DNA from: a virus
Taxonomy: Duplodnaviria; Heunggongvirae; Uroviricota; Caudoviricetes
Direction: 5' to 3' (one strand)
Virus record (IMG/VR): IMGVR_UViG_638275430_000001
Coordinates: 86,274 to 150,273 of that record
DNA length: 64,000 nucleotides
Shown here one piece after another: positions 1 through 62,688 of the stretch. The notes beneath the pieces were generated by a model. The model was given only the letters and a program-made list of their open reading frames with translations, made no database searches and had not been told where the DNA came from. A program made the position numbers and the translations under genes. The first letter of the stretch is position 1, and each line of letters starts with the position of its first letter.

Positions 1-3
1 TTT

Positions 4-3000
4 TTAAAGCTGTTCAGTGAGTTTCAGATAATCTTTCAACTCTTTGCCTTTCAGCTTCTTACATGCTGAATACTCGCGGTATTCTGTGCGCTTGGCAGGG
101 ATGTAGACACGAACGTATCCGTCATCCTCGTTGCCGCCTTCGATCTTGATTCCCGCAGGGAAATCAACTTTCTTGGGTTCCACGTACTCAAGACGACCGT
201 TCTTCCATCTTGGCAATTCGCCATCACGGAAAGAATAAACGATGTAATCTTGAACACTAGAACGCTTGGCTTCGGTAAGCATTTCACCGAACTTCATTGT
301 TTTACTTTCTTCCAACGTTCCCTTCATTTCTGCTTGATACGCTTTGAACTTGTCGTGGCGGTTTAGCTCGACTTCATAGCATTTTAGAATTCGCAGTTGT
401 TTTTCTGGATTAAACACTGCCCATTCCGGACTGATTACGTTTGATTTTGATGTTGCGTTAGGCACACCAGCAGAACGATAATCTTTAATAGGCTGACCCA
501 GAATAGATTCCATTTCGAAAACATATCCCTTTGTTCCAGCTTGACGTCCATAACCGGAGTTACCAACGTACTGCAAGATCTTATCAATCTTGTTACTAAA
601 GTAAATACCGTCACCTAGCATACGTCCAACAACAGATGCATCCTTACTAGGAATGATCTTAAAGCCGTAGCGTAAAATCATGTTAGCAGCGATACCACCA
701 GTTCCGTGAAAACATGGAACAACTTGCTCAAGTTTACCAGCGTCGATTTGCTCTTGCATGAACTTTTTGAATTCACCGTCAGGGAAACTCACGGTCATAC
801 TACGCAGAATTAGCGGATAAACATTGCCGTGTTTACCAGCGTAATAGTTGTCGATCAAATGCTTACCAATCAGGTATTTCTGTTCGTTGGTAATATTGTC
901 GTTCGTCGCTTTAACTTTCGGAACAACACCGTCACCCTTCGCAGCTTCTGCCTCTACTCGCTTGATATAATCGGTGAATTTCTCATTCTTACCGAGTTTG
1001 AGCTTCGCTTGTTTCACCAACTCAGTTGGGTTAATCTCGTTAAACTCAAACATCTGTTTAACACGACGACGATCAAGCTTATCGAACAAGTTAATTGGAC
1101 CTTCAAGAACTTGTCCGTAAACAAACTTGATTGCAGCCAATTGATCACGAACTTTACCACGATAATATGTTTCCAAGTTATCAAAGAACAAGTCGGTAAC
1201 AGTCGGGTCGGTTTCTACGGCGTCGGTCATAATGTCAACCAATGATTGCTGCATACCTTGTTTGTGATCGCGAACGCTAATTGATTTACCGTTCTCAGCG
1301 TTAAAGAACTTGAATCCGTTCTTAACTTCAAGCTTCATGAATTCTACAGCATCTTCTCCCTCGAAATCATAGTATTTCAAGAAAGCAGAATAAAGATTGT
1401 CAAACTTGCTTGAGGTAATACCAAGACTAGAAAGATCCAGATTTTTCCCCAATACGCTATAAGCACCTAGGAAAATCTTCTGTCTGTGTTCTGGCATTGT
1501 GCCGCGATTTGACATCAACAAAATGCGAGTCTTTCCGTATGAGTTAGGTGTACCTTGAATCTTGCTCATAACGTATTCCGCACCAGCTTTAACGTCCTTT
1601 TCACCATGAATGAAAATAGCAGACAATAATGCCCGTTCTTGTTCTTCCCATGGAACACCGGCGCTAGTGTCTTTCGTGATATAAGCGTCCAACGCATCCT
1701 TAACGCGCTGCTTCATGCTCGGTACCATGTTTACTGCCATTTCGTTTACGCGATTTGGGAAGATAACTCCGATTTCAAGAGCACGAATAACGCACTTAGC
1801 AATCATGATCACATCAGCGGTATCCATACGCTCAAGCGGAAACTCGACGGAAGTCTTGTATGCGTCATTAACTTTCAGCATGACATTTTTAAATTCTTCA
1901 TCATCCAGCGCAAAAACTTTGGACCAATGTAGATTAACGAAACCGAAATCCGCATTTGTTTTGTTATCCGGATTCAACAAGAACTCCATGCCATAGCGAC
2001 ACATAGTTAACTTGCTTTGATCGTTCCAAGCACTCCAACGATACGGAGGATAAAAATCTTTGTACTTGTCGGTAACATAGTTAACGACTTGATCCCAACC
2101 AATCATATCAGCAAACGGACCAGTAAACAACAATTCTTTGTAACCATCAGTCAGATACGAAGAATAGGACATCATATAAACGTAAGCGGGTTTGATTACT
2201 TCCAACAGACAGTTGAAATACATTTGGCGAATCATTGGACTCATTTCACGCATATTGCCCATGATGCCGATAACAATGCTATTCCCGTTCGTTCCCTTAT
2301 AGTGATTCACCATATCTTGGCCGATTTTGCCATTTGTCATTTCAAAGGCAACATCAATGCTATTGAATCCAAAGAGCCAGCAAGTCGGGTCAGTTTTCAT
2401 ATTACTAAACGCCATTGCCATTGTCTGATAACCGGTATATCCAATTTCATCACCGAGAATGCTATATTTTTCTTTTAATCCACGGAAGAAGGAAATGTGT
2501 TTACGCAAGAATTCAACGTTTTTCAATTCCATTGCTTCTTCAATCGCATAAACGCTATTTGAGTTATCACCAAGCATATAATGACTGATACGTTTGCCCA
2601 TTTCTGAAAGCTGGGTAATAGTAGCAGAGTATCGGGTACGGTACTTGTCGTGCATTTCGGATTGCGCTTCATCGTTCAGATCGAATTCGAATCCAGTTAC
2701 CATTTCGCCGTACTTACTCACAATAGGATATGCAGTTTGAGCCAACCCATATAGACCTTTCAGACCGGTACTTGTGTTAACACACTCTTCAATCTGCTTG
2801 GAAATGAATTGGAGCAATCCCGCGTCATGATCATATGTCTGATAGTCTGGTTGAACAGGAACAGCTACAGGCTCGTCCTGGACGACCGGAGCGACGTCAT
2901 CGGCAACGTCATCGACATCAGGAGACGCATGGACTTGTGCCAAGTTATCGTTTTTGTCGTCGTCATCATCGTCTCCGGTATTTGATGTAACACCAGCACC

Positions 3001-3639
3001 AGCAGCAGTACCAACAGTTACGGTACTCACACCAGCAAGACGCGCATATTTAACATACATACTCACGGTCCACAGATCTTCACCTGCTTCTGGGAATTTT
3101 TTGATTACGCGACGCAATTCCTTGGAAGTATCAATCAGACTAATAGCACCTGTCTTAAACTTGTTCATCAGATCACGAAGCTTTGGATGCAAATTCATCA
3201 ATGCGGTAGATTTAATGTTTGCTACCCAACCACGAACGATATCATCATCAACGGTGTTAATAACTCCGGCTTTGCATTTAACTAGGAAGCGGGTCATTTC
3301 GCTTACCTTAGCGTCGCTGATAAACATTTTCTTATCAGTCATTAGTTTCAGTACCAGGGAAATGTTGTTGTTATCGTCTCCGATATTCTTCAACATCAAT
3401 TGGCCGTCACTCTTAAAATAACGCTCATACTTGCGCAGGCTAGATAGATGATTCATCTGGCGTGCAGCGTTGAAACTACCCAGAATACCGATGAAGTTGA
3501 ACATGAACGCATTCATGATCGCGGTTTCGTCATCCACGAAAGTCGCTTTGTTTGCGGCATCATAGAGGGTATTTTCTGCCAAGAAGCGTTGGTAATCCTC
3601 TTCTTCTTGACGCTCGAATAATTGTTTGGTTGTTAACAT
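4..3639 (-). CDS. Large protein with C-terminal PARP-like (H-Y-E) ADP-ribosyltransferase domain; probably late and virion-associated
   Basis: Motifs CFHGT, GDGIYFS and SPEWAVF match the PARP catalytic triad layout; CTAAATA late-type promoter and GAGG RBS upstream. Confidence 0.8.
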   Translation of the reverse strand: MLTTKQLFERQEEEDYQRFLAENTLYDAANKATFVDDETAIMNAFMFNFIGILGSFNAARQMNHLSSLRKYERYFKSDGQLMLKNIGDDNNNISLVLKLMTDKKMFISDAKVSEMTRFLVKCKAGVINTVDDDIVRGWVANIKSTALMNLHPKLRDLMNKFKTGAISLIDTSKELRRVIKKFPEAGEDLWTVSMYVKYARLAGVSTVTVGTAAGAGVTSNTGDDDDDDKNDNLAQVHASPDVDDVADDVAPVVQDEPVAVPVQPDYQTYDHDAGLLQFISKQIEECVNTSTGLKGLYGLAQTAYPIVSKYGEMVTGFEFDLNDEAQSEMHDKYRTRYSATITQLSEMGKRISHYMLGDNSNSVYAIEEAMELKNVEFLRKHISFFRGLKEKYSILGDEIGYTGYQTMAMAFSNMKTDPTCWLFGFNSIDVAFEMTNGKIGQDMVNHYKGTNGNSIVIGIMGNMREMSPMIRQMYFNCLLEVIKPAYVYMMSYSSYLTDGYKELLFTGPFADMIGWDQVVNYVTDKYKDFYPPYRWSAWNDQSKLTMCRYGMEFLLNPDNKTNADFGFVNLHWSKVFALDDEEFKNVMLKVNDAYKTSVEFPLERMDTADVIMIAKCVIRALEIGVIFPNRVNEMAVNMVPSMKQRVKDALDAYITKDTSAGVPWEEQERALLSAIFIHGEKDVKAGAEYVMSKIQGTPNSYGKTRILLMSNRGTMPEHRQKIFLGAYSVLGKNLDLSSLGITSSKFDNLYSAFLKYYDFEGEDAVEFMKLEVKNGFKFFNAENGKSISVRDHKQGMQQSLVDIMTDAVETDPTVTDLFFDNLETYYRGKVRDQLAAIKFVYGQVLEGPINLFDKLDRRRVKQMFEFNEINPTELVKQAKLKLGKNEKFTDYIKRVEAEAAKGDGVVPKVKATNDNITNEQKYLIGKHLIDNYYAGKHGNVYPLILRSMTVSFPDGEFKKFMQEQIDAGKLEQVVPCFHGTGGIAANMILRYGFKIIPSKDASVVGRMLGDGIYFSNKIDKILQYVGNSGYGRQAGTKGYVFEMESILGQPIKDYRSAGVPNATSKSNVISPEWAVFNPEKQLRILKCYEVELNRHDKFKAYQAEMKGTLEESKTMKFGEMLTEAKRSSVQDYIVYSFRDGELPRWKNGRLEYVEPKKVDFPAGIKIEGGNEDDGYVRVYIPAKRTEYREYSACKKLKGKELKDYLKLTEQL

Positions 3640-3671
3640 TTATGTTCCTCATTGGTGAACTTAATTTACTG

Positions 3672-3678
3672 TATTTAG
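3672..3678 (-). promoter_or_regulatory. Late-type promoter CTAAATA for the PARP-like gene
   Basis: Same heptamer precedes several structural genes in this window. Confidence 0.6.
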
Positions 3679-3689
3679 TGCGTCCAGCA

Positions 3690-3810
3690 CTGCGGCGTAA
3701 GCCGCTAGATCAGAAAAGACAAAATAAAATCTCTTATAGATCTTTAATGATAATCTATTTTGTCTTCCTTAAGGTAATCAATGAGTTAGCTTCGCAGTCG
3801 CTGGCGCGAC
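3690..3810 (+). repeat. Dispersed palindromic repeat, copy 1
   Basis: GCGGCGTAAGCCGC hairpin, AAGACAAAATA...TATTTTGTCTT inverted core, AATCAATGAGTTAGC; near-identical copies at 33666, 33856 and 62541. Confidence 0.95.
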
Positions 3811-3813
3811 ATC

Positions 3814-4695
3814 CTACAACTGGTCAACTATTGAACAAACAACTCGGTGCGTGAACTCGTTAACAATGCTATCGATTATATCTTGTCGTTTGATATTTTC
3901 GATCAGCCAAGGAGTAAACTCTTGATTTTTGTTCTGGACAGTTGTATATGCGCCAATCATTGATCCATAGATACTTGCGATTGTATCGCTATCTAATCCC
4001 ATGTTTGCTATGAGAAAAATCCCATACTCTTTGTGTTCGAACTCTAGGAACACTCTCCAAGCGATTGTGAGTGAGTCCTTAACATAGCCAGTAGGCAAAC
4101 ATGAGTCTTCATCGAAATACGCTCCAAATTCGGTACGAAGCGTCCTTTTGTTTACTCCGTCGAATATCCGATGCATGATACGAACATACAACATAGAGTA
4201 ATGCAAACACAACGGAACCGGATGGGTAAACTCCGTCATGTATTTAACGATACGTTCGATATCTTCTTGACTTCTGCCGTAAGTGGCAATTGCGACTGGA
4301 TACATACGCATGAGCGCACCATTACCAGCTCCCTTAGTTGGGTCAGTGACCGGCTTGTTCGCGAGTATAGCATAGGCAGTACCTGTGCCAACATCAAAGC
4401 ACTCGCCTGTGGAAGAAAACGCACCTTGCTCGATCCAGCGCGTCATATCACGCTTAATTGCGGGCACATTGAACTCGCCATTTTTGAAATTGCGCATAGT
4501 GATCAGCGCACAAGTGGTATCGTCTGTGAAGTTACCATACTTATTGTGAAAAACATCGCGATCTGTTTTCAGCAGATTCATGTCCACTTTGCGAAGTTTT
4601 TTCTTGCCTTTGGTGCCGAAATTGAATTCGTTGAATGCGCCAACACAATCGCCAATGATAGCAGATTGCGTGGTATTTTTGATAATGTCGATCAT
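3814..4695 (-). CDS. ADP-ribosylglycohydrolase (ARH/DraG family)
   Basis: Motifs IIGDCVG, FTDDT, GAGNGALMRMYP, THP and DSDTIASIYGSMIGA. Confidence 0.9.
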   Translation of the reverse strand: MIDIIKNTTQSAIIGDCVGAFNEFNFGTKGKKKLRKVDMNLLKTDRDVFHNKYGNFTDDTTCALITMRNFKNGEFNVPAIKRDMTRWIEQGAFSSTGECFDVGTGTAYAILANKPVTDPTKGAGNGALMRMYPVAIATYGRSQEDIERIVKYMTEFTHPVPLCLHYSMLYVRIMHRIFDGVNKRTLRTEFGAYFDEDSCLPTGYVKDSLTIAWRVFLEFEHKEYGIFLIANMGLDSDTIASIYGSMIGAYTTVQNKNQEFTPWLIENIKRQDIIDSIVNEFTHRVVCSIVDQL

Positions 4696-4764
4696 GATAT
4701 CCTCATAAATGAAAAAGGGTCTATACTCGATAGACCCATATTGTACTTCTTTATTGATTTGAAA

Positions 4765-5382
4765 TCAACGACGATGTGGAATAATTGATTCCAGATAGTT
4801 GTTGACATAGACAACATCACCAGCAACACGTTGCAGATTACAATCTTGTTGTTCGGTTTTGACGGAGTGGAATACAACTTGATCTTTGCTATCGTCTTTG
4901 CTGATAATTTTCAGCAGGATGTATTCTTGCGTCATCGGGTCGATCATAGGCTCGCCGCCCATTTTCAGAACTTCCAATCGAGTACCACTGTTGCGGTACA
5001 ATTCGATCATGTCGCCTTCGGTGATAGCACGACCGGAAATCAGACCAGGATTGGTTACTTTTCGGGTTTTGTGTGAATAGAAGCCACCGCGTTTCACCCA
5101 TCCCATAGTACCAACTTCGATACTTTCATTGGTGATACCAAAGTTAACTTTGTTGACTCGGGTAATCAGCGCGTTCCCGTTAACGATGCGCATAGAAACA
5201 CGTTCGTCGCTCGCTTCCAGATTGTATACCGGTTCGACGTTGGTGCCAGTTCGCTCGATGTTCAGCAGAACATAAGAACGATCTTTGATGTCGATGGAGT
5301 CGCCCGGTTTCATGTCGATCAGTCGAACATAATTGATATCGATATTCGGCATAGCCACTTGATGTTTCAGATAATAAGCCAT
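4765..5382 (-). CDS. Hypothetical protein, 205 aa
   Basis: ATG ORF in the co-oriented early cassette. Confidence 0.7.
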   Translation of the reverse strand: MAYYLKHQVAMPNIDINYVRLIDMKPGDSIDIKDRSYVLLNIERTGTNVEPVYNLEASDERVSMRIVNGNALITRVNKVNFGITNESIEVGTMGWVKRGGFYSHKTRKVTNPGLISGRAITEGDMIELYRNSGTRLEVLKMGGEPMIDPMTQEYILLKIISKDDSKDQVVFHSVKTEQQDCNLQRVAGDVVYVNNYLESIIPHRR

Positions 5383-5391
5383 GATAATTCC

Positions 5392-5589
5392 TTAGTGTGT
5401 GATTTCGTTGATGCGGGTTTCGTAAACTTTGATCTTGCTGCGGAACAGATCCATGTTTTCTTTGTGTTCCATGATAACAGCTTGTGACAGTGCGCGTTGT
5501 GCGAATGCATGAGATTCGATCAACACATCTTTCTCAGTAGCGTAGCCACGTTTAGCGCGTTTTGCTTTCAGTTCGGCGGTAGTCATCAT
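5392..5589 (-). CDS. Hypothetical protein, 65 aa
   Basis: GAGG RBS; follows a sigma70-like promoter. Confidence 0.7.
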   Translation of the reverse strand: MMTTAELKAKRAKRGYATEKDVLIESHAFAQRALSQAVIMEHKENMDLFRSKIKVYETRINEITH

Positions 5590-5619
5590 GATTTGTTCCT
5601 CAGTTCGTTTGATGTAGCT

Positions 5620-5647
5620 ATATTAACAGATCTGGATTTGCTGTCAA
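5620..5647 (-). promoter_or_regulatory. Sigma70-like early promoter
   Basis: TTGACA-N16-TAATAT. Confidence 0.55.
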
Positions 5648-5925
5648 TCGATTCTAGGAATTATTTTCACATAAATCTGAAAATGTCCTCTCGCGTGACG
5701 TTCGCGATTGAAACTCTCGACAAAATCCTCGTTATCAATGCAACTCAACTCCGGACAAAGCTTGTCAAATAGCCAATAGGTATCGCTCTTGAAATCTGCG
5801 AATTCTTGGGATTCTGCTATCTTTTTTGATCTAGGATAGTAGTTGTTCAGAACGTTAAGCAGATACAGGAGACGATTCCGCAGAACTGGATGCGTAATAT
5901 AGTGACGGGTTTCATATGATTTCAT
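5644..5925 (-). CDS. Hypothetical protein (start MKSYE)
   Basis: ATG with GGAG RBS. Confidence 0.6.
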   Translation of the reverse strand: MKSYETRHYITHPVLRNRLLYLLNVLNNYYPRSKKIAESQEFADFKSDTYWLFDKLCPELSCIDNEDFVESFNRERHARGHFQIYVKIIPRID

Positions 5926-5935
5926 CTTTATCTCC

Positions 5936-5956
5936 AAAAAGGGCCCGAAGGCCCTT
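5936..5956 (-). terminator. Rho-independent terminator
   Basis: GGGC-CTTCGG-GCCC hairpin followed by a U tract. Confidence 0.8.
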
Positions 5957-5958
5957 GA

Positions 5959-6507
5959 TCAAAATTCGTTATCTTGCTCATACAGCTCAACAAAGCCGAG
6001 TCCGTGTGCATCCAGAGCGCCTTCGTCGTTCTTACGGATAAGAATAGTCTTACCTTTAGAATCACTCAAAACAACAGCATCGGGAGTGATCAACAGAACA
6101 CTGCATTTCCCGTTCCGACTTTCAACTTCATCGGCGATAGAAAGAGGCTCACCAACACCGATTCGATATGCTGCTTTCTCAACAAACAGGCCGTTTGAAC
6201 TTGATTTACGAGCGATTCCAAGTGGCTTCATTTGCTGACGAGTTACGCTATAAGTTTTGGAATCTTTATATACTCGGGTAATCTCTACCTCATACGCACC
6301 GAACAGTCGGAAAGTAAGTTCGGTCTTGCCGTCTTCGGATTCAGCACGATAGAATGGAGAATATACTCCAGACCCATTACTTACTCCATATCGAGTGAAC
6401 ATACCAAACTTGATGTTATTTGCTTCATCAACGAACGGCTTACCCGCGAGGTGAATTTCTACAAGTTCCACCGGAACGTCTTTGATATTTCGCTTATGAT
6501 AAAACAT
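5959..6507 (-). CDS. Hypothetical protein, 182 aa
   Basis: ATG ORF closely following the upstream gene. Confidence 0.7.
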   Translation of the reverse strand: MFYHKRNIKDVPVELVEIHLAGKPFVDEANNIKFGMFTRYGVSNGSGVYSPFYRAESEDGKTELTFRLFGAYEVEITRVYKDSKTYSVTRQQMKPLGIARKSSSNGLFVEKAAYRIGVGEPLSIADEVESRNGKCSVLLITPDAVVLSDSKGKTILIRKNDEGALDAHGLGFVELYEQDNEF

Positions 6508-6897: not shown

Positions 6898-7535
6898 GAT
6901 TTGAATCCGTAGTATTTGAAATCGACGTACTTACCAACATACATGCCAGTCATATCTTGATAGATTATAGTCTGTGTTTCTCGGTCTTGCAACATCGGAC
7001 TAGCCTTAGTTACATCAATTGATACCATATCCACGTTATCAAAACAAGCAGGAGTTTTCCCGTCTTTCGACTTTACATCACGATCTTTCCAGATTTCAGC
7101 GACAGTCGGACGAGTTACACCTTTGGACTTACGAATCACTTGAATAGTGAAAATAACATCGATTTCGTGAACAGCTTCAATTCGCTTGATGTATGAGCGC
7201 AGTTTCTCCAGTCGATCTTCGGTACCGTTGAAATCAGCATAACCGGAGAAGTCTAAAACAACAACGTCGATTTTACGCTCTCTTCCAAGCTCTACCGCAG
7301 CGTTGTGAACGGCGTCCTGTAGGGCAGTCAGACTTACACCGTCAACTTCACCAACAGCAATCTCACCGTCTCCAAAGTCGGTATCGATATCGGAGATCTT
7401 TCCGACGATACTCTCTTGGGTTTCTTCGTTGTTCAGGAAGACGACATACTTGCCTTTCTTCGCTTCTTCTACCGCAAGTTCAATTGCTTTGCTAGTCTTG
7501 CCAGCGCCGGCACTTGCTTTAATTATCTTGATCAT
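6894..7535 (-). CDS. P-loop NTPase (RecA/DnaB-like fold, function unknown)
   Basis: N-terminal Walker A ASAGAGKT; Walker B-like VVVLDF. Confidence 0.65.
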   Translation of the reverse strand: MIKIIKASAGAGKTSKAIELAVEEAKKGKYVVFLNNEETQESIVGKISDIDTDFGDGEIAVGEVDGVSLTALQDAVHNAAVELGRERKIDVVVLDFSGYADFNGTEDRLEKLRSYIKRIEAVHEIDVIFTIQVIRKSKGVTRPTVAEIWKDRDVKSKDGKTPACFDNVDMVSIDVTKASPMLQDRETQTIIYQDMTGMYVGKYVDFKYYGFKS

Positions 7536-7791
7536 TTACTTCCTCGTGATATTCGTCAATCCAATATTGGTCAGAGTCTTTGTTTCGACGTTTCAGATCT
7601 GATTGAATGCAATCGATAACAGATTGTCGATTTCGTATAGTCTCAGCATGTGGCTCAACGTCGGACGATAAAGTGAATTTTATCTCACCTATCTGAACAA
7701 TGCAACTCAAGAAATCGCGACGTTTGACCCAAACGGTGACATCGTATTTCTTGAGTTTCTGTTTGCGTTTAAAAAAGTCAAGTATTTTCAT
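7519..7791 (-). CDS. Hypothetical protein, 90 aa
   Basis: Co-oriented ATG ORF. Confidence 0.6.
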   Translation of the reverse strand: MKILDFFKRKQKLKKYDVTVWVKRRDFLSCIVQIGEIKFTLSSDVEPHAETIRNRQSVIDCIQSDLKRRNKDSDQYWIDEYHEEVNDQDN

Positions 7792-7806
7792 ATGTAAAAT
7801 CGGGGA

Positions 7807-8064
7807 TTAACCCCGATTCTCCAGAGATTTGATCATCGCATAGAGACGGTCAATATGACGGCGCTGGGTGATTACCATCATCCACAGACACACAAAGAAC
7901 GACATAGCGGAGATCACGAATGTGCCTTCCGCCTGATAGTTTTCATAGCCAGCATACACATCCATGAAAATGTATGAATAGCCAAGCAGCATCAGCAGAA
8001 TATAGATAACGTTATCCATATTGAAATTCCACTTGCCGTCTACTTTCATTCGAGTATCAATCAT
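7807..8064 (-). CDS. Small membrane protein with two hydrophobic segments
   Basis: Two ~20-aa hydrophobic stretches; AGGA RBS. Confidence 0.65.
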   Translation of the reverse strand: MIDTRMKVDGKWNFNMDNVIYILLMLLGYSYIFMDVYAGYENYQAEGTFVISAMSFFVCLWMMVITQRRHIDRLYAMIKSLENRG

Positions 8065-8074
8065 TTTATTTTCC

Positions 8075-8266
8075 TTAGTTCATTACCAACATAAATGGGC
8101 AGTTTACACAAACAGCATACCAGAGTGCGCCACTTGCTGCCACGGGGATAAGAGTGCCGATATCAATCTTGCCACTTAATGCAAGTTGCGCGTATGTACC
8201 AAAAGCGGTAGCGAACGACACAACAACAGCGATAATCACAAGAACAATCCAACCGAATACGATCAT
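8075..8266 (-). CDS. Small membrane protein (start MIVFGW)
   Basis: ATGA overlap; hydrophobic N-terminus. Confidence 0.6.
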   Translation of the reverse strand: MIVFGWIVLVIIAVVVSFATAFGTYAQLALSGKIDIGTLIPVAASGALWYAVCVNCPFMLVMN

Positions 8267-8490
8267 ACAGTCAGATCTCGGTGAATTTGCGACAGTGCTG
8301 CCAGTTCGTTTTCGTCTTTGCATTCAAACGAGGCATCTTCAATCAGTCGCACAATGATATCGTGGTGCTTGATCATGTTCATCATAACACGGCGAGCATT
8401 TTTAAAATCTGACTCGCTCATATCTTTTGGTTTACCTTGAATACGCAGACCATTACGAGCGTTTTCAGGCAACATTTCATTCAAGAACAT
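8263..8490 (-). CDS. Hypothetical protein, 75 aa
   Basis: GGAG RBS. Confidence 0.65.
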   Translation of the reverse strand: MFLNEMLPENARNGLRIQGKPKDMSESDFKNARRVMMNMIKHHDIIVRLIEDASFECKDENELAALSQIHRDLTV

Positions 8491-9046
8491 ATTTTACTCC
8501 CAACCGTTGAGCCAAATTTCGAAGTCTTTCTTCTCGTTCATCACGAGTCTCAATTACCATACGATTATAGAACGATGTGCCAGCTAGGTCAAGCAGTTTC
8601 TTTGTTATTTCTTCTGCTTCTGATTTCAATACAGTTTGAGCGGCGTGAGTTGTTAACATGCTCTCTATGGTATTGAGTTCTTTCATGTTCTCGGATGGAA
8701 TACGAACTGGACTCTTTTGTACACTAATACCACTGCTATTTGCGGTCACTTTAATGTGTACCCAGTCACAGTTATTTTCGTTCGGCACATCGACATCCAC
8801 CAACACGGTATCTTCGGATTGTAGCGATGAAAGAAATATCAGAGGTACCCGACCAAGATAACGTCCATTAAACTTACCATCAAGATCAAAGAAGCAAACG
8901 TGGTAAACTTGTTGATCTTGTACTACTTGAGAGATAGCGTAAACGTTCTTCGGGTTACCTGTTCCAACAATGCGGTCACGATAACGAAAAGTCGCTTTCA
9001 TATCGTTCAGCATTTCGGCAATGCTATCAGTTGCTTTGGTGTTCAT
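8477..9046 (-). CDS. Hypothetical protein (start MNTKAT)
   Basis: GGAG RBS before the internal ATG at 9046. Confidence 0.65.
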   Translation of the reverse strand: MNTKATDSIAEMLNDMKATFRYRDRIVGTGNPKNVYAISQVVQDQQVYHVCFFDLDGKFNGRYLGRVPLIFLSSLQSEDTVLVDVDVPNENNCDWVHIKVTANSSGISVQKSPVRIPSENMKELNTIESMLTTHAAQTVLKSEAEEITKKLLDLAGTSFYNRMVIETRDEREERLRNLAQRLGVKYVLE

Positions 9047-9422
9047 CTTGCTTCTCCATTTCTTTGATAAGATCAATATACACGGCTTTGGCTTCGTTCT
9101 CAACATATTCCGGGAGTCCCATTATGTCGAAACACAGACAGCGATTTTTATCCCATCCAAGATTGAAAGCGATTGACTGAGGGATATTTTTGTTTCCAAA
9201 CGGACGTTTCGCCGTTTTCAGAAACTCAACAATGCCCATTTTACATTGTTCGTCTTCTTCGCTTTGGAGATATTCGAGATAGAAACCCTTCAACACAGTT
9301 TCCAATCGAACACGTTCCCAAAACGGCTCCATTCGATTGTTGAGCGCGTTGTCCCAATACTTGACTCGGGTCATACCTGATTCGGCAACATATCGGGCAT
9401 TCAGTTTATGGAGATTCATCAC
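9027..9422 (-). CDS. Hypothetical protein, 131 aa
   Basis: GGAGG RBS; ATGA overlap. Confidence 0.7.
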   Translation of the reverse strand: MMNLHKLNARYVAESGMTRVKYWDNALNNRMEPFWERVRLETVLKGFYLEYLQSEEDEQCKMGIVEFLKTAKRPFGNKNIPQSIAFNLGWDKNRCLCFDIMGLPEYVENEAKAVYIDLIKEMEKQDEHQSN

Positions 9423-9676
9423 GCTTCCTCCTTCATTTCAGTTGCGTATTTCTCGATCATCTGCATAGTGATCCACTCGGGTTTAGTTTCAAAGCTGTTA
9501 TACAGTGCTTTCATGCTTTCGATTTGTTCGTCAACACTGCCAGCCCACAGACGGGATACAGAACGATTACCGTATCCCAGAAAGAATTCGCAATCGGATT
9601 TCATACGACTCAGTAACATGTATTTGAATTCATGATCTGCTGGACGAGTCGCGATAACTTCTTGAATATAGCTCAT
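9419..9676 (-). CDS. LPD11-like (large polyvalent protein-associated domain) standalone protein
   Basis: YMLLSRMKSDCEFFLGYG..LWAG..EQIESMKALY..KPEW matches the LPD11 pattern as recalled. Confidence 0.75.
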   Translation of the reverse strand: MSYIQEVIATRPADHEFKYMLLSRMKSDCEFFLGYGNRSVSRLWAGSVDEQIESMKALYNSFETKPEWITMQMIEKYATEMKEEA

Positions 9677-9704
9677 GATTTATTCCTCTCGTTTCGATGT
9701 GTCC

Positions 9705-9732
9705 ATAATAGCAGGTTGATTTGATGTGTCAA
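9705..9732 (-). promoter_or_regulatory. Sigma70-like early promoter
   Basis: TTGACA-N16-TATTAT directly after a terminator. Confidence 0.6.
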
Positions 9733-9741
9733 CAACAAAAC

Positions 9742-9765
9742 AAAAAAGCCACCCGAAGGTGGCTT
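9742..9765 (-). terminator. Rho-independent terminator
   Basis: GCCAC-CTTCGG-GTGGC hairpin plus U6. Confidence 0.85.
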
Positions 9766-9782
9766 AAATTTATCTTAACTGA

Positions 9783-10061
9783 TTACTCACTATCCCAAGA
9801 CCGTTTTACGTTACGTCCATCACGACGAGGGCGAGACTTGTCTTTAGCCGGTTTTTCGATATGTTCACGTTCGTCCATGATGGACTTGATCAGATCGTAA
9901 TAATCGGCCAGATTGTGAGCGCGTTCCATATCCGCATCAGAACAATTCTGATTATCTGCATGATACTGTGCGGCAGCGCGAGACTTCAACACGGTTTTAC
10001 GCAGTGCATTCAGACGTTCGGTAGTCAGATTGCGGAGTTTTTTCTCAGTTAGAAATTCCAT
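9783..10061 (-). CDS. Hypothetical protein, 92 aa
   Basis: AGGA RBS; ends before a terminator. Confidence 0.7.
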   Translation of the reverse strand: MEFLTEKKLRNLTTERLNALRKTVLKSRAAAQYHADNQNCSDADMERAHNLADYYDLIKSIMDEREHIEKPAKDKSRPRRDGRNVKRSWDSE

Positions 10062-10110
10062 CTTTGTTTCCTACAGGTGGTTTTAATACACTATCACGAA
10101 TGACAGATTT

Positions 10111-10232
10111 TGGAGGGGAAGACGGGACTCGAACCCGCGACCAACAGTTTGAATTTGCGTTTATTTGCGGTAAAGAATCTTAATCAGATTCCGCTTTGTG
10201 CGACTACTGCTCTACCACTGAGCTACTTCCCC
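10111..10232 (-). ncRNA. tRNA-bodied RNA (CCA-ended) with the anticodon loop replaced by a ~54-nt motif insert
   Basis: GGGGAAG/CTTCCCC acceptor, T73-CCA, normal D and T arms; insert GAATCT-GATTA-AGATTCTTTACCGCAAAT. Confidence 0.8.
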
Positions 10233-10240
10233 AAATTTTT

Positions 10241-10376
10241 ACAACACTATGCTGGCGGTGCTGGAGTCGAACCAGCGTTACAGGCTTAACAGGCGAGTAT
10301 TTATTGCAGGAATCATTCTTGACAGAATGAATTTTACAGTGTCCTACCACTAGACGAACCGCCAGCATAATGTTGT
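10241..10376 (-). ncRNA. tRNA-bodied RNA, CCA-less, ~19-bp terminal clamp, motif hairpin in place of the anticodon arm
   Basis: Glu-like D arm CGTCTAGTGGTAGGAC; T arm GCTGG-TTCGACT-CCAGC; insert TCATTCT-GTCA-AGAATGATTCCTGCAAT. Confidence 0.8.
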
Positions 10377-10505
10377 TTGTTGTCGCGATACTGGATTCGA
10401 ACCAGTGACGTTTCTCGATGTGCCCACACGCAACGGAATCGAACCGTTCTCGATACTTCCTCGGCTAGAGGACGTTCTCCCAACTGAACTAATCGCGACA
10501 ACAAA
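10376..10505 (-). ncRNA. tRNA-like RNA with two T arms and a 14-bp terminal clamp
   Basis: D arm GTTC-AGTTGGGA-GAAC; AACGG-TTCGATT-CCGTT and ACTGG-TTCGAAT-CCAGT; no CCA. Confidence 0.75.
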
Positions 10506-10518
10506 ACTATATTAACAC

Positions 10519-10995
10519 TTATTTCTTAGAAGGTAAACCATTTTCGTTGAACTTTTTCACTGCGAGTTTGAACTTCAAACGAATACACGGCTCACGACTC
10601 GGATCCACTTTCATGATCTTGGCATTTCCACGGTGAATCAGCGAGTAAACATCTTCGATCTGATTCCGAGCAATCAGTTCCGCGAATTCTTCGCTGTATC
10701 GAATCTGGGTAGTGAAGTCAATAAACTCCTCGCCAGAAATCAGATCAACACAACGAGTTACGGCACCATCATACATGTAATCCGTATTCACAACAACACG
10801 AACATTACCAGCACCGTCGAAAGAGATCATCGGGATGCCGAGAGGACGTTTGTATGAAAGCATGATCAAACGATCTTTCTCTTTACGTTCTTCGTATTCT
10901 TTGCGCTTTTGTTCGATTCCAGCCCATTTGCCTTCTTCGACGATAGCAGTATAAGTATTCGGGAACAACAGTTTAGCCAGATATTTCATACTCAT
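10519..10995 (-). CDS. Hypothetical protein, 158 aa
   Basis: GAGG RBS. Confidence 0.7.
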   Translation of the reverse strand: MSMKYLAKLLFPNTYTAIVEEGKWAGIEQKRKEYEERKEKDRLIMLSYKRPLGIPMISFDGAGNVRVVVNTDYMYDGAVTRCVDLISGEEFIDFTTQIRYSEEFAELIARNQIEDVYSLIHRGNAKIMKVDPSREPCIRLKFKLAVKKFNENGLPSKK

Positions 10996-11025
10996 AATAA
11001 CTTCCTCATTGATTTGATATTCGTA

Positions 11026-11370
11026 TTATAGCGACTCTGGATTACCAGTCAAGCAAAAATATGCGATTGCGATCAAAATTTTACACACAACATGAAGTGC
11101 CTGATCTTGATGTAATCCAATCTTACCGTTGCACTTAGCATAATCGATGATCCAATGACTTACAAGCTCTGCCAAACTAAGCCAAACGCTCTTGGTTGCA
11201 ACGTATACCACAAGCGCATGGGTAGCACTATGGGCAGTTAGCCAGTAAATCCAATGCACTCCATAGAGTGGAGAGTTGATAGGATTCTTACCACGAGCAA
11301 TACTATCGGATTGCAGAACATAATCGGCCACAAAATGACCGATAATCAGAACATATAGAATCTCAAACAT
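11026..11370 (-). CDS. DUF3307-like membrane protein
   Basis: GHFVADYVLQ, H..HA, HWIIDYAK and DQALH pattern. Confidence 0.75.
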   Translation of the reverse strand: MFEILYVLIIGHFVADYVLQSDSIARGKNPINSPLYGVHWIYWLTAHSATHALVVYVATKSVWLSLAELVSHWIIDYAKCNGKIGLHQDQALHVVCKILIAIAYFCLTGNPESL

Positions 11371-11569
11371 TTCGCGGCGCCATCACTAAGAAAACGTGAT
11401 ATCCGTTTTGTTTGATTTGTCTGGTATGAAAGCTGAATCCGCGAGACAACAGAATAACATGATCGTGCTGGCTAATGAAATCGCTTCTGTCCATTGGATC
11501 GGTACTAACTTCGTCGTATCCGATACACTCGATAGTCCGAAGAATCCGAGATAGATTTTCAGATACCAT
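11363..11569 (-). CDS. Hypothetical protein (start MVSENL)
   Basis: Fills the gap between flanking coupled ORFs. Confidence 0.5.
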   Translation of the reverse strand: MVSENLSRILRTIECIGYDEVSTDPMDRSDFISQHDHVILLSRGFSFHTRQIKQNGYHVFLVMAPRNV

Positions 11570-11846
11570 CGTGTTCGATCTTCTCTTGCAACTCTGCTTT
11601 GCAGTTTGCCAAATGATGTTCGATAACACGTTCATCGGCAAACAATTTCAGATTCAGGCTGGTGCGATAGTGATCGCCTTCGCCAGCGTGAGAGTGAAAC
11701 CAGAACTCCACATTACCTTCATCGTCGATGTTGGCATCATTGGATTCCCAGTTAGAATCTCCATTGACTTTGATTTCGTTCGCATGTGCGACTATCGCTT
11801 GCTTGAAAGTCTTGATGTTATAAATTAGCGCATTTGTATTTCGCAT
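11559..11846 (-). CDS. Hypothetical protein, 95 aa
   Basis: GGAG RBS; coupled to the upstream gene. Confidence 0.65.
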   Translation of the reverse strand: MRNTNALIYNIKTFKQAIVAHANEIKVNGDSNWESNDANIDDEGNVEFWFHSHAGEGDHYRTSLNLKLFADERVIEHHLANCKAELQEKIEHDGI

Positions 11847-12101
11847 TTATTCTCCGTTAACTTGTTTCAAAAAATCTTCCACCTGCTTGATCCAAGACGA
11901 AACGCTTGCTTGATCGCGGAAGAAATCCATTTCAAATTTGTGTTCAAGCTCTTTGCCGTCGGCATCGAACTTCACAATGATTTCTTTCTTGTTCAGATTG
12001 AACGATACATCATCGGCCTTAAAATCCATTTTGTGGATTTTTGCCATTGCATCGCCGTACATCTTCACGTTGGCAAGTATAAACTCAATAATAGAACTCA
12101 T
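11847..12101 (-). CDS. Hypothetical protein (start MSSIIE)
   Basis: GAG RBS before the ATG at 12101. Confidence 0.6.
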   Translation of the reverse strand: MSSIIEFILANVKMYGDAMAKIHKMDFKADDVSFNLNKKEIIVKFDADGKELEHKFEMDFFRDQASVSSWIKQVEDFLKQVNGE

Positions 12102-12108
12102 GATAATC

Positions 12109-12522
12109 TCACATTGGAGTTGGAATTTGGCCGAATTCAGCTTGCAGTCGCTTGTAATGTTCCAAGCGTTGTTGCTTCTGATTAGCAATCCATGCTTCTT
12201 TCTTGACCCGGTACTCTTCGTCTTTCTGCTTTATGTGAGCAAAAGATCGCGCAATCTCGGATTCGATATCTTCCAGGATGTCGTCGATCTCTCGATCATC
12301 AACCGCGACGTCAATGCTACAAACATGGAAGTCGTCATCCCAGCCAGTCTCAAAAGTGACGCTAATCGTCATGTCTTCGAGATCCATGCTAACATTCGAA
12401 TATCGACCAGTCAACTTGCGAATGTTATCTTTATCGTGAAACTGGGAAACTTTTTCGTTCCATTCAGCTCGCAACGTCTCGACTTTCGCCACAATCTTCT
12501 TACAATCTTCACTTTTGAACAT
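12109..12522 (-). CDS. Hypothetical protein, paralog of 12524..12910
   Basis: Shared MF...DC.K, ID.I..D..S and charged C-terminal helix ending FG. Confidence 0.7.
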   Translation of the reverse strand: MFKSEDCKKIVAKVETLRAEWNEKVSQFHDKDNIRKLTGRYSNVSMDLEDMTISVTFETGWDDDFHVCSIDVAVDDREIDDILEDIESEIARSFAHIKQKDEEYRVKKEAWIANQKQQRLEHYKRLQAEFGQIPTPM

Positions 12523-12523
12523 G

Positions 12524-12910
12524 TTATTCTCCGAATTTCTCTTTAAGTTTCAGATAGGTTTCGCGTTCTTCTTGCTCTCGTTTGGCAATTTGATCCAGTC
12601 TATCTTGCTCTTTTTTCTTGCGTTCGTCAAGCTTCGATTTCAATCTGTCGCCGAACTTGGAATTCAGATCATTGATGATAGTATCGATGTCTTTTGTTCC
12701 GATGTTGGTTTCCACACAGAATACCGCACCATCTTCCCACCACATATGATCGAATGCTACATGAATATCCAGATATGAGAATCTGATATCGATTGTTGCC
12801 GTTCTTACTTTGAGATGAGTGTCTATCGTGGCAATCTCTTGATTCCATTTCAGTTGAGCAGCAAATGCCCATTGCTTCAATTTATCACAATCATTTTTGT
12901 TTATGAACAT
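12524..12910 (-). CDS. Hypothetical protein, paralog of 12109..12522
   Basis: AGGAG RBS; similarity to the neighbouring gene. Confidence 0.7.
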   Translation of the reverse strand: MFINKNDCDKLKQWAFAAQLKWNQEIATIDTHLKVRTATIDIRFSYLDIHVAFDHMWWEDGAVFCVETNIGTKDIDTIINDLNSKFGDRLKSKLDERKKKEQDRLDQIAKREQEERETYLKLKEKFGE

Positions 12911-12958
12911 GTTTGTTCTCCTTTTGTATATTCTCTCATATCCAACGCATATGTCAAT

Positions 12959-12982
12959 AAAAAAGGCACCCGAAGGTGCCTT
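12959..12982 (-). terminator. Rho-independent terminator
   Basis: GGCAC-CTTCGG-GTGCC hairpin plus U6. Confidence 0.85.
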
Positions 12983-12987
12983 AATTT

Positions 12988-14424
12988 TTAGAAGTCGATA
13001 CCGACGTAACGGTCGCTCATGATCTTGTCAAGCATGATTTGCATCGGGTTAAAGTCTTTCGCACTCAGGATTGTCTCCATGATTGCGGGACTGAAACCGG
13101 ACACCAACGCAGTGCCTTGATCATCTTTGGTCACCGGATTGTTAGTCGGGCGCGGGCAAAGATTCCAGAATACCAGCTTCGGCATTTCGTAACCAGCATC
13201 GCGGTAAGTCTGACGAATCACCTCAAAGTTGGTACGTTCGCGATCACGCATACGATAGTATCCGCTGTAACCGCCGTCAGCGATGTTGAATTCCATGTCA
13301 GACAAGACGACCATCATAGTCGGCATATCTTCTTGCGGAACTCGATTGCGTACAGCGCGATCAAGAATGATCTTGAATGCACCGGCAAAGTTGGTAGAGC
13401 CACCCCAAGGAGCGCGTCCCAGATGATTCACCATGCTTTGCAGATCGTCGCCTTTCGCTTTGATGTTGTAGAACTGAGGATTATCATCGAAGGTAATCAC
13501 TTCGTTCTTGAACACGCCACCAGAGCGTTCGCCGATATACAGACCCAGAGAAATCGCGATGTCCATAGCAGACAGACCAGCAACAGCAGTCGGAGTGCTC
13601 ATAGAACCGGAAACGTCAACCATTGCGATTACGTTTTCGGTAGAGCCAGCCATCCAGTCGCGTTGTGCTTTCCATTGCGCGTCAGCAGCAATAGAAGAAC
13701 CGGTACGCATGGACTTGATCATGTCATACGGGTAAACTGCACCAGCGTTGATCTTAGCCTCGCCCTTTTTCAGAGACTCAAGGTAAGCAACATAACGCTC
13801 GTTCGCGTTTTTCAGGAATGCTTTCTGATATCGAGCAGAAGCAACAGACGGCAGTTTACCGAACTCAATGCCATCCCACTGACGAGCACACATCTTTTGT
13901 TCAACGGTGTTCGACATACGGACGATAGTGTGACGGTATTCTTTGGCAGTCATCTGCATGGCTTTCGCTAGAATGCCAGCTTCTGAGCCTTTGCGCGGTG
14001 CCCACTTTGCAGCAAGACCGTTTTGCTTGGTCATGATTGCATCAACCATGATCGCAACAGCGGCGTCCTGAATCGGAGAGTTGAACATCGCTACCACATC
14101 TTTGAAGCGACCGATTTCAGGAGTGTTCATCAGAACAACGGTAGCATCAACCGGGTGACGGTGTGCAAGGACTTTCAGCAGGCGGATGAATTGTTCGCGT
14201 TCACCGGCACCACCGCGAATATCGCGAGCCCATTGCAGAATGCGAACAGCCCAGTCCGGAGACTCGGTATAAGCATCAACAAACATCTGAGTTAGATCTT
14301 TCCCGCGAGAGGAACCAATCTGAGAAAACAGATTCAGACACTTGTCGCCAGTAGTGTAGTTAGTAACAGCACCGTTAGCAGTGCGGGCTTGAGCTTGTAC
14401 CATTGCATTCATAAAAGTAGACAC
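12988..14424 (-). CDS. DUF2828 / vWA protein (Ro60/TROVE-like), 478 aa from GTG
   Basis: RTANGA, WARDIRGGAGER, AAKWAPR, KINAGAVYPYD, MIDAS DVSGS, GGSTN and LSDMEF; GAGGT RBS before the GTG at 14424. Confidence 0.85.
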   Translation of the reverse strand: MSTFMNAMVQAQARTANGAVTNYTTGDKCLNLFSQIGSSRGKDLTQMFVDAYTESPDWAVRILQWARDIRGGAGEREQFIRLLKVLAHRHPVDATVVLMNTPEIGRFKDVVAMFNSPIQDAAVAIMVDAIMTKQNGLAAKWAPRKGSEAGILAKAMQMTAKEYRHTIVRMSNTVEQKMCARQWDGIEFGKLPSVASARYQKAFLKNANERYVAYLESLKKGEAKINAGAVYPYDMIKSMRTGSSIAADAQWKAQRDWMAGSTENVIAMVDVSGSMSTPTAVAGLSAMDIAISLGLYIGERSGGVFKNEVITFDDNPQFYNIKAKGDDLQSMVNHLGRAPWGGSTNFAGAFKIILDRAVRNRVPQEDMPTMMVVLSDMEFNIADGGYSGYYRMRDRERTNFEVIRQTYRDAGYEMPKLVFWNLCPRPTNNPVTKDDQGTALVSGFSPAIMETILSAKDFNPMQIMLDKIMSDRYVGIDF

Positions 14425-14437
14425 AGAATTACCTCTT

Positions 14438-15037
14438 TCAGGTTTGTTTGAATTTGTCCCAATCATAGGACAGTTTGTTTTTCCAGCACTTGCGGCAGAA
14501 CGAGATATAACGTTGTTCAGCCCCAATGCAAATTTGTTCACCGCGACGGATAACATTGCCGTTATCATCAACGCGAGCTACCATACAGGATTTTCTACCA
14601 CAATCGCAGATACCAGACAGTTGTCGGATTTCATCTGAGATCGAAAGCAATGCCCTAGAGCCGGGGAACAAGTTACCGAGAAAATCGGTACGCAGTCCGT
14701 AGCACATCACAGGGATATCCAGCTTGTCAACTACATCAGATAGTTCCCATACTTGTTTTTCAGTTAGGAACTGCGCTTCATCAACAAGAACACAGGCGAT
14801 TTCGGACAGTTTACTCTCTTTTTCGATCATTGTAAACATGTTTTCATTAACATGTACACATCGGCATTCACGCTGGATACCGATACGTGATCCAATCGTG
14901 CCTTCCGTTCTCGTGTCAAATGCTGGTTTGTACAACAGAACGTTTTGATTTCTCTCGTTGTAGTTGAAAGCCACTTGCAGTAATTGAGTGCTCTTTCCAA
15001 CGTTCATCGAGGCATGGGTGAAAAATAACTTAGCCAT
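14438..15037 (-). CDS. tk: Thymidine kinase
   Basis: SMNVGKST, VLVDEAQF, YGLRTDF and C-terminal Zn cysteines. Confidence 0.95.
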   Translation of the reverse strand: MAKLFFTHASMNVGKSTQLLQVAFNYNERNQNVLLYKPAFDTRTEGTIGSRIGIQRECRCVHVNENMFTMIEKESKLSEIACVLVDEAQFLTEKQVWELSDVVDKLDIPVMCYGLRTDFLGNLFPGSRALLSISDEIRQLSGICDCGRKSCMVARVDDNGNVIRRGEQICIGAEQRYISFCRKCWKNKLSYDWDKFKQT

Positions 15038-15086
15038 TGATTCCTCTTTTCTGTTACTTTAACTCGCCTTCCATGGCAAGTAAACA

Positions 15087-15413
15087 TCAGTAACAATATT
15101 TCGCTAAAAAGTTAGCTTGGTATGAATCGTCCTTGATGTAGTATTTGATTCCACTTTGATACACAGCTTTCAATAGTACAACGGTTTCTTGTTTGAACTC
15201 GGGTACAATCGTACAGCTACCAGTTTCGATTGTGTGAACAAGAATTCCGTTATATTCAAACTCAACGCGAGCAGCTTGATAGAACTTACCTCTCCACTCT
15301 TGTGGCTTGTATCGCGTCGCCTGTGCTGTTACTTCACGAACAACAATTGGCTTTTCTGGTTCGCCGCAACCAGATAACAGCGCGACGAACACAAGAAACA
15401 TTACACGGAACAT
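15087..15413 (-). CDS. Putative lipoprotein
   Basis: Signal peptide with lipobox LSGC. Confidence 0.7.
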   Translation of the reverse strand: MFRVMFLVFVALLSGCGEPEKPIVVREVTAQATRYKPQEWRGKFYQAARVEFEYNGILVHTIETGSCTIVPEFKQETVVLLKAVYQSGIKYYIKDDSYQANFLAKYCY

Positions 15414-62540: not shown

Positions 62541-62662
62541 AGTCGCGCCAGCGACTGCGAAGCTAACTTATTGATTTCATTAAAGAAGACAAAATAGATT
62601 CTCATTAAAGATCTATAAGAGATTTTATTTTGTCTTTTTAGCGGCTGCGCCGCAGTCTTCGA
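62541..62662 (-). repeat. Dispersed palindromic repeat, copy 4 (inverted)
   Basis: Reverse complement matches copy 1, including TTCGCAGTCGCTGGCGCGAC. Confidence 0.95.
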
Positions 62663-62669
62663 CTAAATA
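62663..62669 (+). promoter_or_regulatory. Late promoter CTAAATA for gene 15
   Basis: Upstream of the AAGGAGG RBS of gene 15. Confidence 0.7.
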
Positions 62670-62688
62670 CAAGTAAAGGAGGATACCA

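Follow-up and report, generated by a model that had tools for sequence, protein, structure and literature searches.

A PARP-type ADP-ribosyltransferase encoded beside an ADP-ribosylhydrolase in Aeromonas phage Aeh1 has a late-type promoter motif and a candidate prohead-protease leader

The DNA analyzed here, which we refer to as the window, is a 64,000-nucleotide (nt) stretch of IMG/VR record IMGVR_UViG_638275430_000001 (positions 86,274 to 150,273). At its start two genes lie on the minus strand, one encoding a large PARP-like ADP-ribosyltransferase (ART) and the other, directly upstream, an intact ADP-ribosylglycohydrolase (ARH). The genome is that of Aeromonas phage Aeh1, in a record of 233,234 bp, and all 15 published Aeh1 late-promoter coordinates land exactly on the motif CTAAATA in this record. 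The nearest other records are those of Aeromonas phages Ah1 and avDM12-TAAL, at a nucleotide identity of ~85%. The two genes were named ORF131c (the ART) and ORF132c (the ARH) by Nolan et al. 2006 (PMC1524935), who tabulated Pfam domain hits for both.

An original prediction, made from the sequence of the window, had described a 1211-residue open reading frame (ORF) with PARP motifs and an ARH gene directly upstream of it as a writer/eraser pair, and had mentioned a PARP-like ORF in Aeromonas phage Aeh1. Because the window DNA is phage Aeh1 itself, the ORF mentioned is this very gene. Novelty cannot be claimed for either the ORF or the pair, both of which are in print: Otto et al. 2005 (PMC1266365) named the “bacteriophage Aeh1 pART” and noted a large, unrelated N-terminal portion; Perina et al. 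2014 (PMC4245714) and Suskiewicz et al. 2023 cited the protein as a putative functional PARP whose function is unknown; and the survey of Iyer et al. 2022 (PMC9503650) called the pair an ART-ARG toxin-antitoxin. These accounts concern the identical gene pair in the identical genome, and their treatment consists of domain hits and contextual prediction; we found no experimental work on ORF131c or ORF132c in the literature. The observation of a PARP-type ART beside an ARH is thus real and was correctly read, yet it is known for this gene pair. What our analysis adds is the architecture of the ART family, a predicted late promoter, a leader resembling a protease site and the weakness of the ART-ARH linkage; the published accounts that we searched contain no three-part architecture, late promoter, protease-site leader or restriction of the ARH to a single clade.

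The motifs first read from the 1211-residue ORF form a complete H-Y-E triad. FHGTGG contributes H978 (codon 706-708), GDGIYFS (595-615) contributes Y1013 (601-603), and PEWAVF (412-429) contributes E1072 (424-426). When 124 full-length relatives were aligned with hmmalign, the His was conserved in 123 and the Tyr and Glu in every one. The Pfam profile of the PARP catalytic domain (PF00644) matches ORF131c with an E-value of 1.3e-5 and 25.3 bits, 1.4 under its gathering score of 26.7, and 17 of 19 relatives have a precomputed match to the same profile; an NCBIfam scan of the ART gave no match. In a HMMER alignment to PARP1, the HG[ST] and GIYF motifs line up together with the nicotinamide-pocket Lys and Tyr, K1020 and Y1024 of ORF131c being the equivalents of PARP1 K903 and Y907.

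The predicted fold agrees with this reading. We modeled residues 760-1211 with AlphaFold (AF2), using 19 relatives as input, at a predicted local distance difference test score (pLDDT) of 80. The top Foldseek matches of the model were the catalytic fragments of PARP1, PARP2 and PARP3 (E ~1e-9), and VIA-align placed residues ~907-1096 on the ART domains of tankyrase, PARP10 and PARP1 (Z 14-15) with a root-mean-square deviation (rmsd) of ~3.5 Å over ~170 residues, the values for tankyrase and PARP10 being 3.4-3.9 Å over 160-175 residues. Triad conservation and the fold match together bear out the PARP-type layout that the original prediction had proposed. ORF131c has in common with the eukaryotic PARP catalytic domains their fold, triad and nicotinamide-pocket residues, but its identity to them is ~15-20% and the eukaryotic accessory domains are all missing from it; Pfam and NCBIfam profile scans detected no DNA-binding domain. 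Judged by its residues and its modeled fold, ORF131c is very probably an active PARP-type NAD+-dependent ADP-ribosyltransferase. Knowledge of PARP-clade enzymes comes mainly from eukaryotes, and we know of no phage member that has been characterized.

The ~950 residues N-terminal to the ART, which had been left unassigned, can now be divided into domains (Table 1). A HMMER search with residues 1-770 against 1.84 billion representative sequences returned 151 matches, nearly all of them proteins of 1050-1560 residues in which only residues ~15-220 were matched, at the extreme N-terminus of the protein found. All 124 matches of at least 900 residues carry the C-terminal ART module, and the matches that do not are all shorter than 900 residues and look like fragments. 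For this reason the layout of the family, as read from its sequences, is fixed: a leader, a helical N-domain, a low-complexity linker, a variable middle, a helical region, the ART and a small C-terminal domain. The relatives have equivalent linkers, rich in Ala, Pro and Thr. Past residue ~300, only the relatives P0022 and P0023 align to ORF131c in the search with residues 1-770.

The N-domain model matched only family members in BFVD, and among 48,161 PDB representatives its best match had a Z of 5.5, all matches being generic helical bundles; searching the ESM Atlas with the middle region gave nothing above noise. Profile searches of the Aeh1 ORFs found no paralogue of the N-domain or of the ART module. 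Aeh1 is reported to carry a putative alt gene (Nolan 2006, PMC1524935), to which ORF131c therefore has no detectable kinship; a search with the Alt profile PF01129 found no match in Aeh1, but the controls were equally without a match. Separately, residues 679-790 (window 1270-1605) show a weak similarity to potyvirus-type coat proteins (E 0.03-0.06) that includes an NGF..ENG.S stretch and is not kept across the wider family.

Table 1. Features of the ORF131c-ORF132c locus, in window coordinates.
Feature	Coordinates	Strand	Remarks
Aeh1ORF131c, PARP-like ADP-ribosyltransferase, 1211 aa	4..3639 (including stop)	-	phrog_18612 over full length
N-terminal leader, residues 1-22	3574..3639	-	ends L-A-E before N23; candidate prohead-protease propeptide or capsid-targeting leader
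Conserved all-helical N-domain, residues ~23-203 (~180 residues)	3031..3573	-	family-only, always N-terminal; AF2 pLDDT 89
Low-complexity acidic/Ala/Pro/Val linker, residues ~204-265	2845..3030	-	low pLDDT from residue 200
Variable middle region, residues ~266-759	1363..2844	-	alignable only among Aeromonas-phage orthologues
Conserved helical region before the ART, residues 760-906	922..1362	-	
PARP-type ART catalytic domain, residues ~907-1096	352..921	-	contains H978, Y1013, E1072, K1020 and Y1024
Conserved C-terminal helix and beta-rich domain, residues 1097-1211	7..351	-	
CTAAATAC, Aeh1-type late promoter motif	3671..3678	-	32 nt upstream of the ORF131c ATG
GCGGC-TTAC-GCCGC hairpin	3692..3705	-	directly upstream of the late motif; also before the published gp15/gp16 late promoter
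Long A+T-rich hairpin with a U run after it	3713..3770	-	candidate terminator/attenuator of the ARH transcript; conserved in Ah1, PX29 and phiAS5
Aeh1ORF132c, ADP-ribosylglycohydrolase (ARH/DraG superfamily), 293 aa	3814..4695	-	metal-site motifs intact
Intrinsic terminator between ORF133c and the ARH	4717..4737	-	published as 90990-91010
Early promoter Pe:91935	5613..5662	-	nearest published early promoter upstream of the ARH

Members of the ART family were found in T4-like phages of Aeromonas, Stenotrophomonas, Xanthomonas, Ralstonia, Pseudomonas and Ochrobactrum and at 63 IMG/VR loci. Across 185,579 prokaryote species genomes there were just two close relatives, both on contigs of metagenome-assembled genomes. 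By this sampling, the family is large and essentially confined to phages. Some uncultured phage contigs (L019, at 7109-15138, and L020, L030 and L039; 7.8-20.5 kb) carry two or three tandem full-length ART paralogues, each with its own N-domain, which hints at diversification of the enzyme. In Stenotrophomonas phage Moby, NAD+ salvage genes (NMNAT/Nudix and NAMPT; L004:9589-11272) are found ~3 kb downstream from the ART; NAD+ consumption by the enzyme and NAD+ resupply may be linked.

The late promoters of Aeh1 differ from the T4 sequence TATAAATA and have the motif CTAAATA in common (Nolan 2006, PMC1524935). In the Aeh1 genome TATAAATA occurs only five times, and 28 of the 43 CTAAATA sites are followed by an ORF start within 66 nt. 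ORF131c is preceded by a match to the CTAAATA consensus, and its whole upstream element (a TAGCGGC..GCCGCAGT hairpin, a short spacer and ACTAAATACA) is nearly identical to the published late promoter Pl:148910, which stands in front of the genes for the tail-sheath stabilizer and the small terminase. The motif is kept in relatives: it lies 25-38 nt before the ART start in Ah1, PX29, phiAS5 and Ahp1, which with Aeh1 makes five Aeromonas phages. Across the wider family, TAAATA (mostly as NATAAATA, the T4-type late motif) is found at -70 to -15 at 24 of 36 distinct loci, whereas 51 of 530 control ORFs from these loci have it there (Fisher p 9e-15). The original prediction had given the ART a late-type promoter of its own, and the consensus match and its retention in relatives uphold this; on the strength of these motifs we consider it likely that ORF131c is expressed late.

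The sequence around this motif has features of its own. A near-identical GCGGC..GCCGC hairpin stands just 5′ of CTAAATACA both at 3671-3710 on the minus strand and at 62637-62679 on the plus strand of the window, and this arrangement may be a reusable terminator/late-promoter cassette. The 174-nt spacer that parts the ARH from the ART (3640-3813, minus strand) contains three hairpins and has a folding z of -3.8 as a whole; an Rfam scan of window 1-6000 returned no match. Identity of the spacer to that of Aeh1 is 96% in Ah1, 82% in PX29 and 71% in phiAS5, and that of the ART protein is 85%, 43% and 44%, respectively, so that in PX29, for example, the spacer is better conserved at the nucleotide level than the ART at the protein level.

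The N-terminus of the family bears a second shared signal. Among 148 aligned N-termini, position P3 is Leu or Ile in 139, P1 is Glu in 147 and P1′ is Asn in 142, while P2 is variable, and the median distance of this [L/I]-x-E motif from the initiator Met is 10 residues. The Aeh1 version in ORF131c reads L-A-E22, followed by N23. In T4, the site of the gp21 prohead protease is L/I-X-E and the propeptide of Alt has seven residues (PMC9026906); the capsid-targeting sequence of T4 internal proteins has 10 residues. The leader of the ART family matches the gp21 site and is comparable to both the Alt propeptide and the capsid-targeting sequence. Aeh1 encodes a gp21-type protease, as do all five long IMG/VR contigs with the ART family. 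Because the family-wide leader resembles T4 gp21 sites, virion delivery of ORF131c is plausible, and we see the chances that the protein is in fact packaged and injected as evenly balanced.

The product of the upstream gene looks like an intact hydrolase. ORF132c matches the ADP_ribosyl_GH profile (PF03747) with an E-value of 1.7e-32 and 113.7 bits against a threshold of 26.2, and phrog_6572 with an E-value of 1e-113. Its di-metal motifs GDCVGAFNE (GDxxGxxxE), FTDDT and LDSDT align to the same motifs of 8za7 and 2cwc, and the roles of these motifs are those assigned from established ARH3 and ARH1 structures. The nearest characterized relatives are Tri1 and DraG. With these and other bacterial ARHs (PDB 2woe, 6dre, 2cwc and 8za7) ORF132c shares its superfamily and di-metal motifs, but it is an orthologue of neither DraG nor Tri1, its scores lying far below their NCBIfam equivalog cut-offs (73.9 vs 490 and 67.9 vs 337).

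The published map and our scans give the gene order as Pe:91935, small ORFs, terminator 90990-91010, the ARH, the spacer with the late promoter motif, the ART, and terminator 86253-86268, which overlaps the next early promoter. We therefore think that the ARH is probably reached by early read-through, likely from Pe:91935, and the ART by its own late signal. Within window 4717-4768 (minus strand) there is also, immediately 5′ of the terminator hairpin before the ARH, a sigma-70-like promoter, TTGATT-17-TACAAT, whose start would fall inside that hairpin.

Considering the catalytic domain, the promoter motif and the leader together, the best-supported reading by analogy is that ORF131c would be equivalent in function to T4 Alt while belonging to another ART clade. 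Like ORF131c, Alt is a large ART of a T4-type phage, late-made (as reported for Alt and predicted for ORF131c), with a C-terminal catalytic domain and a short N-terminal leader that ends in L/I-x-E. They differ in that Alt is of the R-S-E type, arginine-specific and proven to be packaged, whereas ORF131c has the H-Y-E triad of the PARP clade and its packaging is predicted from the leader. Under this proposal, ORF131c would be transcribed late from its own CTAAATA promoter, and the short leader, the conserved N-domain or both would direct it into the prohead, where a T4-type prohead protease would trim it after L-A-E22. The mature enzyme would then enter the next host with the DNA and ADP-ribosylate host macromolecules at the start of infection. 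ORF132c, as an active ARH made from upstream early transcription, could remove ADP-ribose marks, and so might either limit or reset the marks of the injected enzyme or shield the infected cell from newly made enzyme before it is packaged. That ORF132c acts on the marks of ORF131c at all is a tentative suggestion, which we would sooner doubt than accept. As for the whole proposal, a late-made, head-packaged and injected PARP-type enzyme with a clade-specific accessory ARH, we would give it an equal chance of being right or wrong.

Several observations weigh against this proposal. The ORF131c promoter site is outside the 15 published Aeh1 late promoters, and it is not in the top 45 sites of a 43-nt matrix built from those 15; flanking sequence dominates the matrix, and we therefore relied on positional and comparative tests of the core motif. 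A search of all Aeh1 ORFs found no other N-terminus with a leader like that of ORF131c, and the [L/I]-x-E-N residues may be conserved for the structure of the N-domain rather than for cleavage. In the literature, the papers on pf16 and DLP6 included, we found no virion proteome for any member of the ART family, nor transcript data for any member. In Stenotrophomonas phage Moby (L004:2667-6275, 1202 residues) and Xanthomonas phage X1 (L005:2061-6248, 1395 residues), the ART gene lies between gp32 and dexA, among replication genes, surroundings unlike the neighborhood in the Aeromonas phages. Lastly, sequence comparison puts ORF132c nearest to the arginine-specific DraG/Tri1 group. The characterized members of that group act on arginine-ADP-ribose, a modification that PARP-type enzymes do not usually make.

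The distribution of the ARH counts further against a close partnership. An ARH lies within 10 kb of the ART at only one of the 63 IMG/VR loci, which is Ah1 itself, and none was found in the non-Aeromonas phage records that carry the ART (Stenotrophomonas, Xanthomonas, Ralstonia, Pseudomonas and Ochrobactrum). Four of five near-complete contigs with the ART have no ARH, and in the fifth it is 50 kb away. Even Aeromonas phage Ahp1, with an intact ART of 1213 residues, has none. Where the two do adjoin, in 11 Aeromonas phage records from at least three genera, the ARH always comes directly before the ART. The two genes also have separate histories: in AsFcp_1 the ARH is 90% identical to that of Aeh1 and the ART only 43.5%, from which it follows that ARH and ART recombine apart, and the 174-nt spacer may be the recombination joint that explains this mosaic. 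Of the writer/eraser pair first predicted, what stands is thus a PARP-type ART adjoining an intact ARH; obligate pairing does not, and the co-occurrence in relatives that had been proposed as a check holds only within the Aeromonas clade. Most likely, the ARH is a clade-specific and loosely linked accessory eraser, not a required partner of the ART.

The same distribution bears on the explanation already in print (Iyer et al. 2022), that the pair is a toxin-antitoxin or immunity module in which the ARH reverses the marks of an ART toxin, for example in superinfection exclusion or self-protection. Such a module would resemble DraT-DraG or Bxa-BAH. The adjacency of the genes on one strand in Aeh1, Ah1, avDM12, PX29, phiAS5 and the AsFcp phages speaks for such a module, as do the published terminators that bracket the pair and an experimental precedent in which an ARH gives enzymatic immunity against the ART of a prophage. 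This precedent is Bxa/BAH of a Bacteroides stercoris prophage (Alexei et al. 2024, PMC11699363), where an adjacent ARH-family hydrolase reverses the marks of the ART. It is the closest tested phage writer/eraser pair and, as in Aeh1, joins a phage-borne ART to an adjacent ARH. Bxa differs in modifying arginine, in having a second, binding-type immunity protein and in belonging to a polymorphic-toxin family with swappable toxin domains; unlike it, the Aeh1 family has a fixed architecture and mostly lacks the ARH. A module of this kind is weakened because co-occurrence is lacking and the promoters are separate, the structured spacer with its own late promoter motif parting the two genes. The AsFcp_1 mosaic and the lytic, T4-like nature of these phages also count against it, and we judge it unlikely.

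Alternatively, the ARH could be an independent counter-defense or housekeeping enzyme whose place beside the ART is incidental, and whose targets would be host ADP-ribosylating defenses or toxins, or arginine marks written by an Alt-type enzyme of the phage itself. ARH homologues do occur in phages without a PARP-like ART (Cronobacter S13/LPCS28, Citrobacter Ci1, jumbo phages and Bacillus phage G), the closest characterized relatives, Tri1 and DraG, are arginine-ADP-ribose hydrolases, Aeh1 reportedly carries a putative alt gene, and proven phage orphan erasers that defeat DarT, with AdfN as precedent, exist; the mosaic exchange relative to the ART fits as well. Against independence stand the constant position of the ARH in the 11 Aeromonas phage records, a PADLOC search that gave no match and so no hint of a defense link, and scores for Tri1 and DraG that fall far short of the equivalog cut-offs, so that the specificity of the ARH may differ from theirs. 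On balance this explanation appears fairly unlikely. A different possibility concerns the ART itself, which might remain unpackaged and work late in the producing cell, for instance on DNA ends, RNA or replication and repair proteins, as DNA-dependent PARPs do. The gp32-dexA location in Moby and X1, the NAD+ salvage genes a few kb downstream in Moby, the PARP1/2/3 fragments at the top of the Foldseek matches and the lack of proteomic evidence for packaging in the literature are all in keeping with this. However, the helical region before the ART superposes unconvincingly on the PARP1 helical domain, since Foldseek comparison with helical-plus-ART PARP fragments spans 340-380 columns at an rmsd of ~14 Å and VIA aligns only from model residue ~87. 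With no DNA-binding domain detected, and with a family-wide [L/I]-x-E leader and late promoters that fit a virion protein better, we regard a role confined to the producing cell as improbable.

Returning to ORF131c as a late-made, injected counterpart of Alt, the predicted late promoter and the prohead-protease-type leader give this protein a concrete, testable mechanism in place of “unknown function”. Extended to the family, the proposal would be that T4-like phages of many hosts inject a PARP-type enzyme, targeted to the capsid and processed by a protease, for takeover in the first minute of infection and that the early-made ARH of the Aeromonas clade then erases the marks in a timed reset, a generalization that we offer tentatively and with some doubt. 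If it is true, PARP-clade ADP-ribosylation, possibly of nucleic acids and even as poly-ADP-ribose, would be a first-minute tool of host takeover in bacteria. A target, if demonstrated, would establish a second and chemically different branch of phage ADP-ribosylation beside that of Alt, ModA and ModB.

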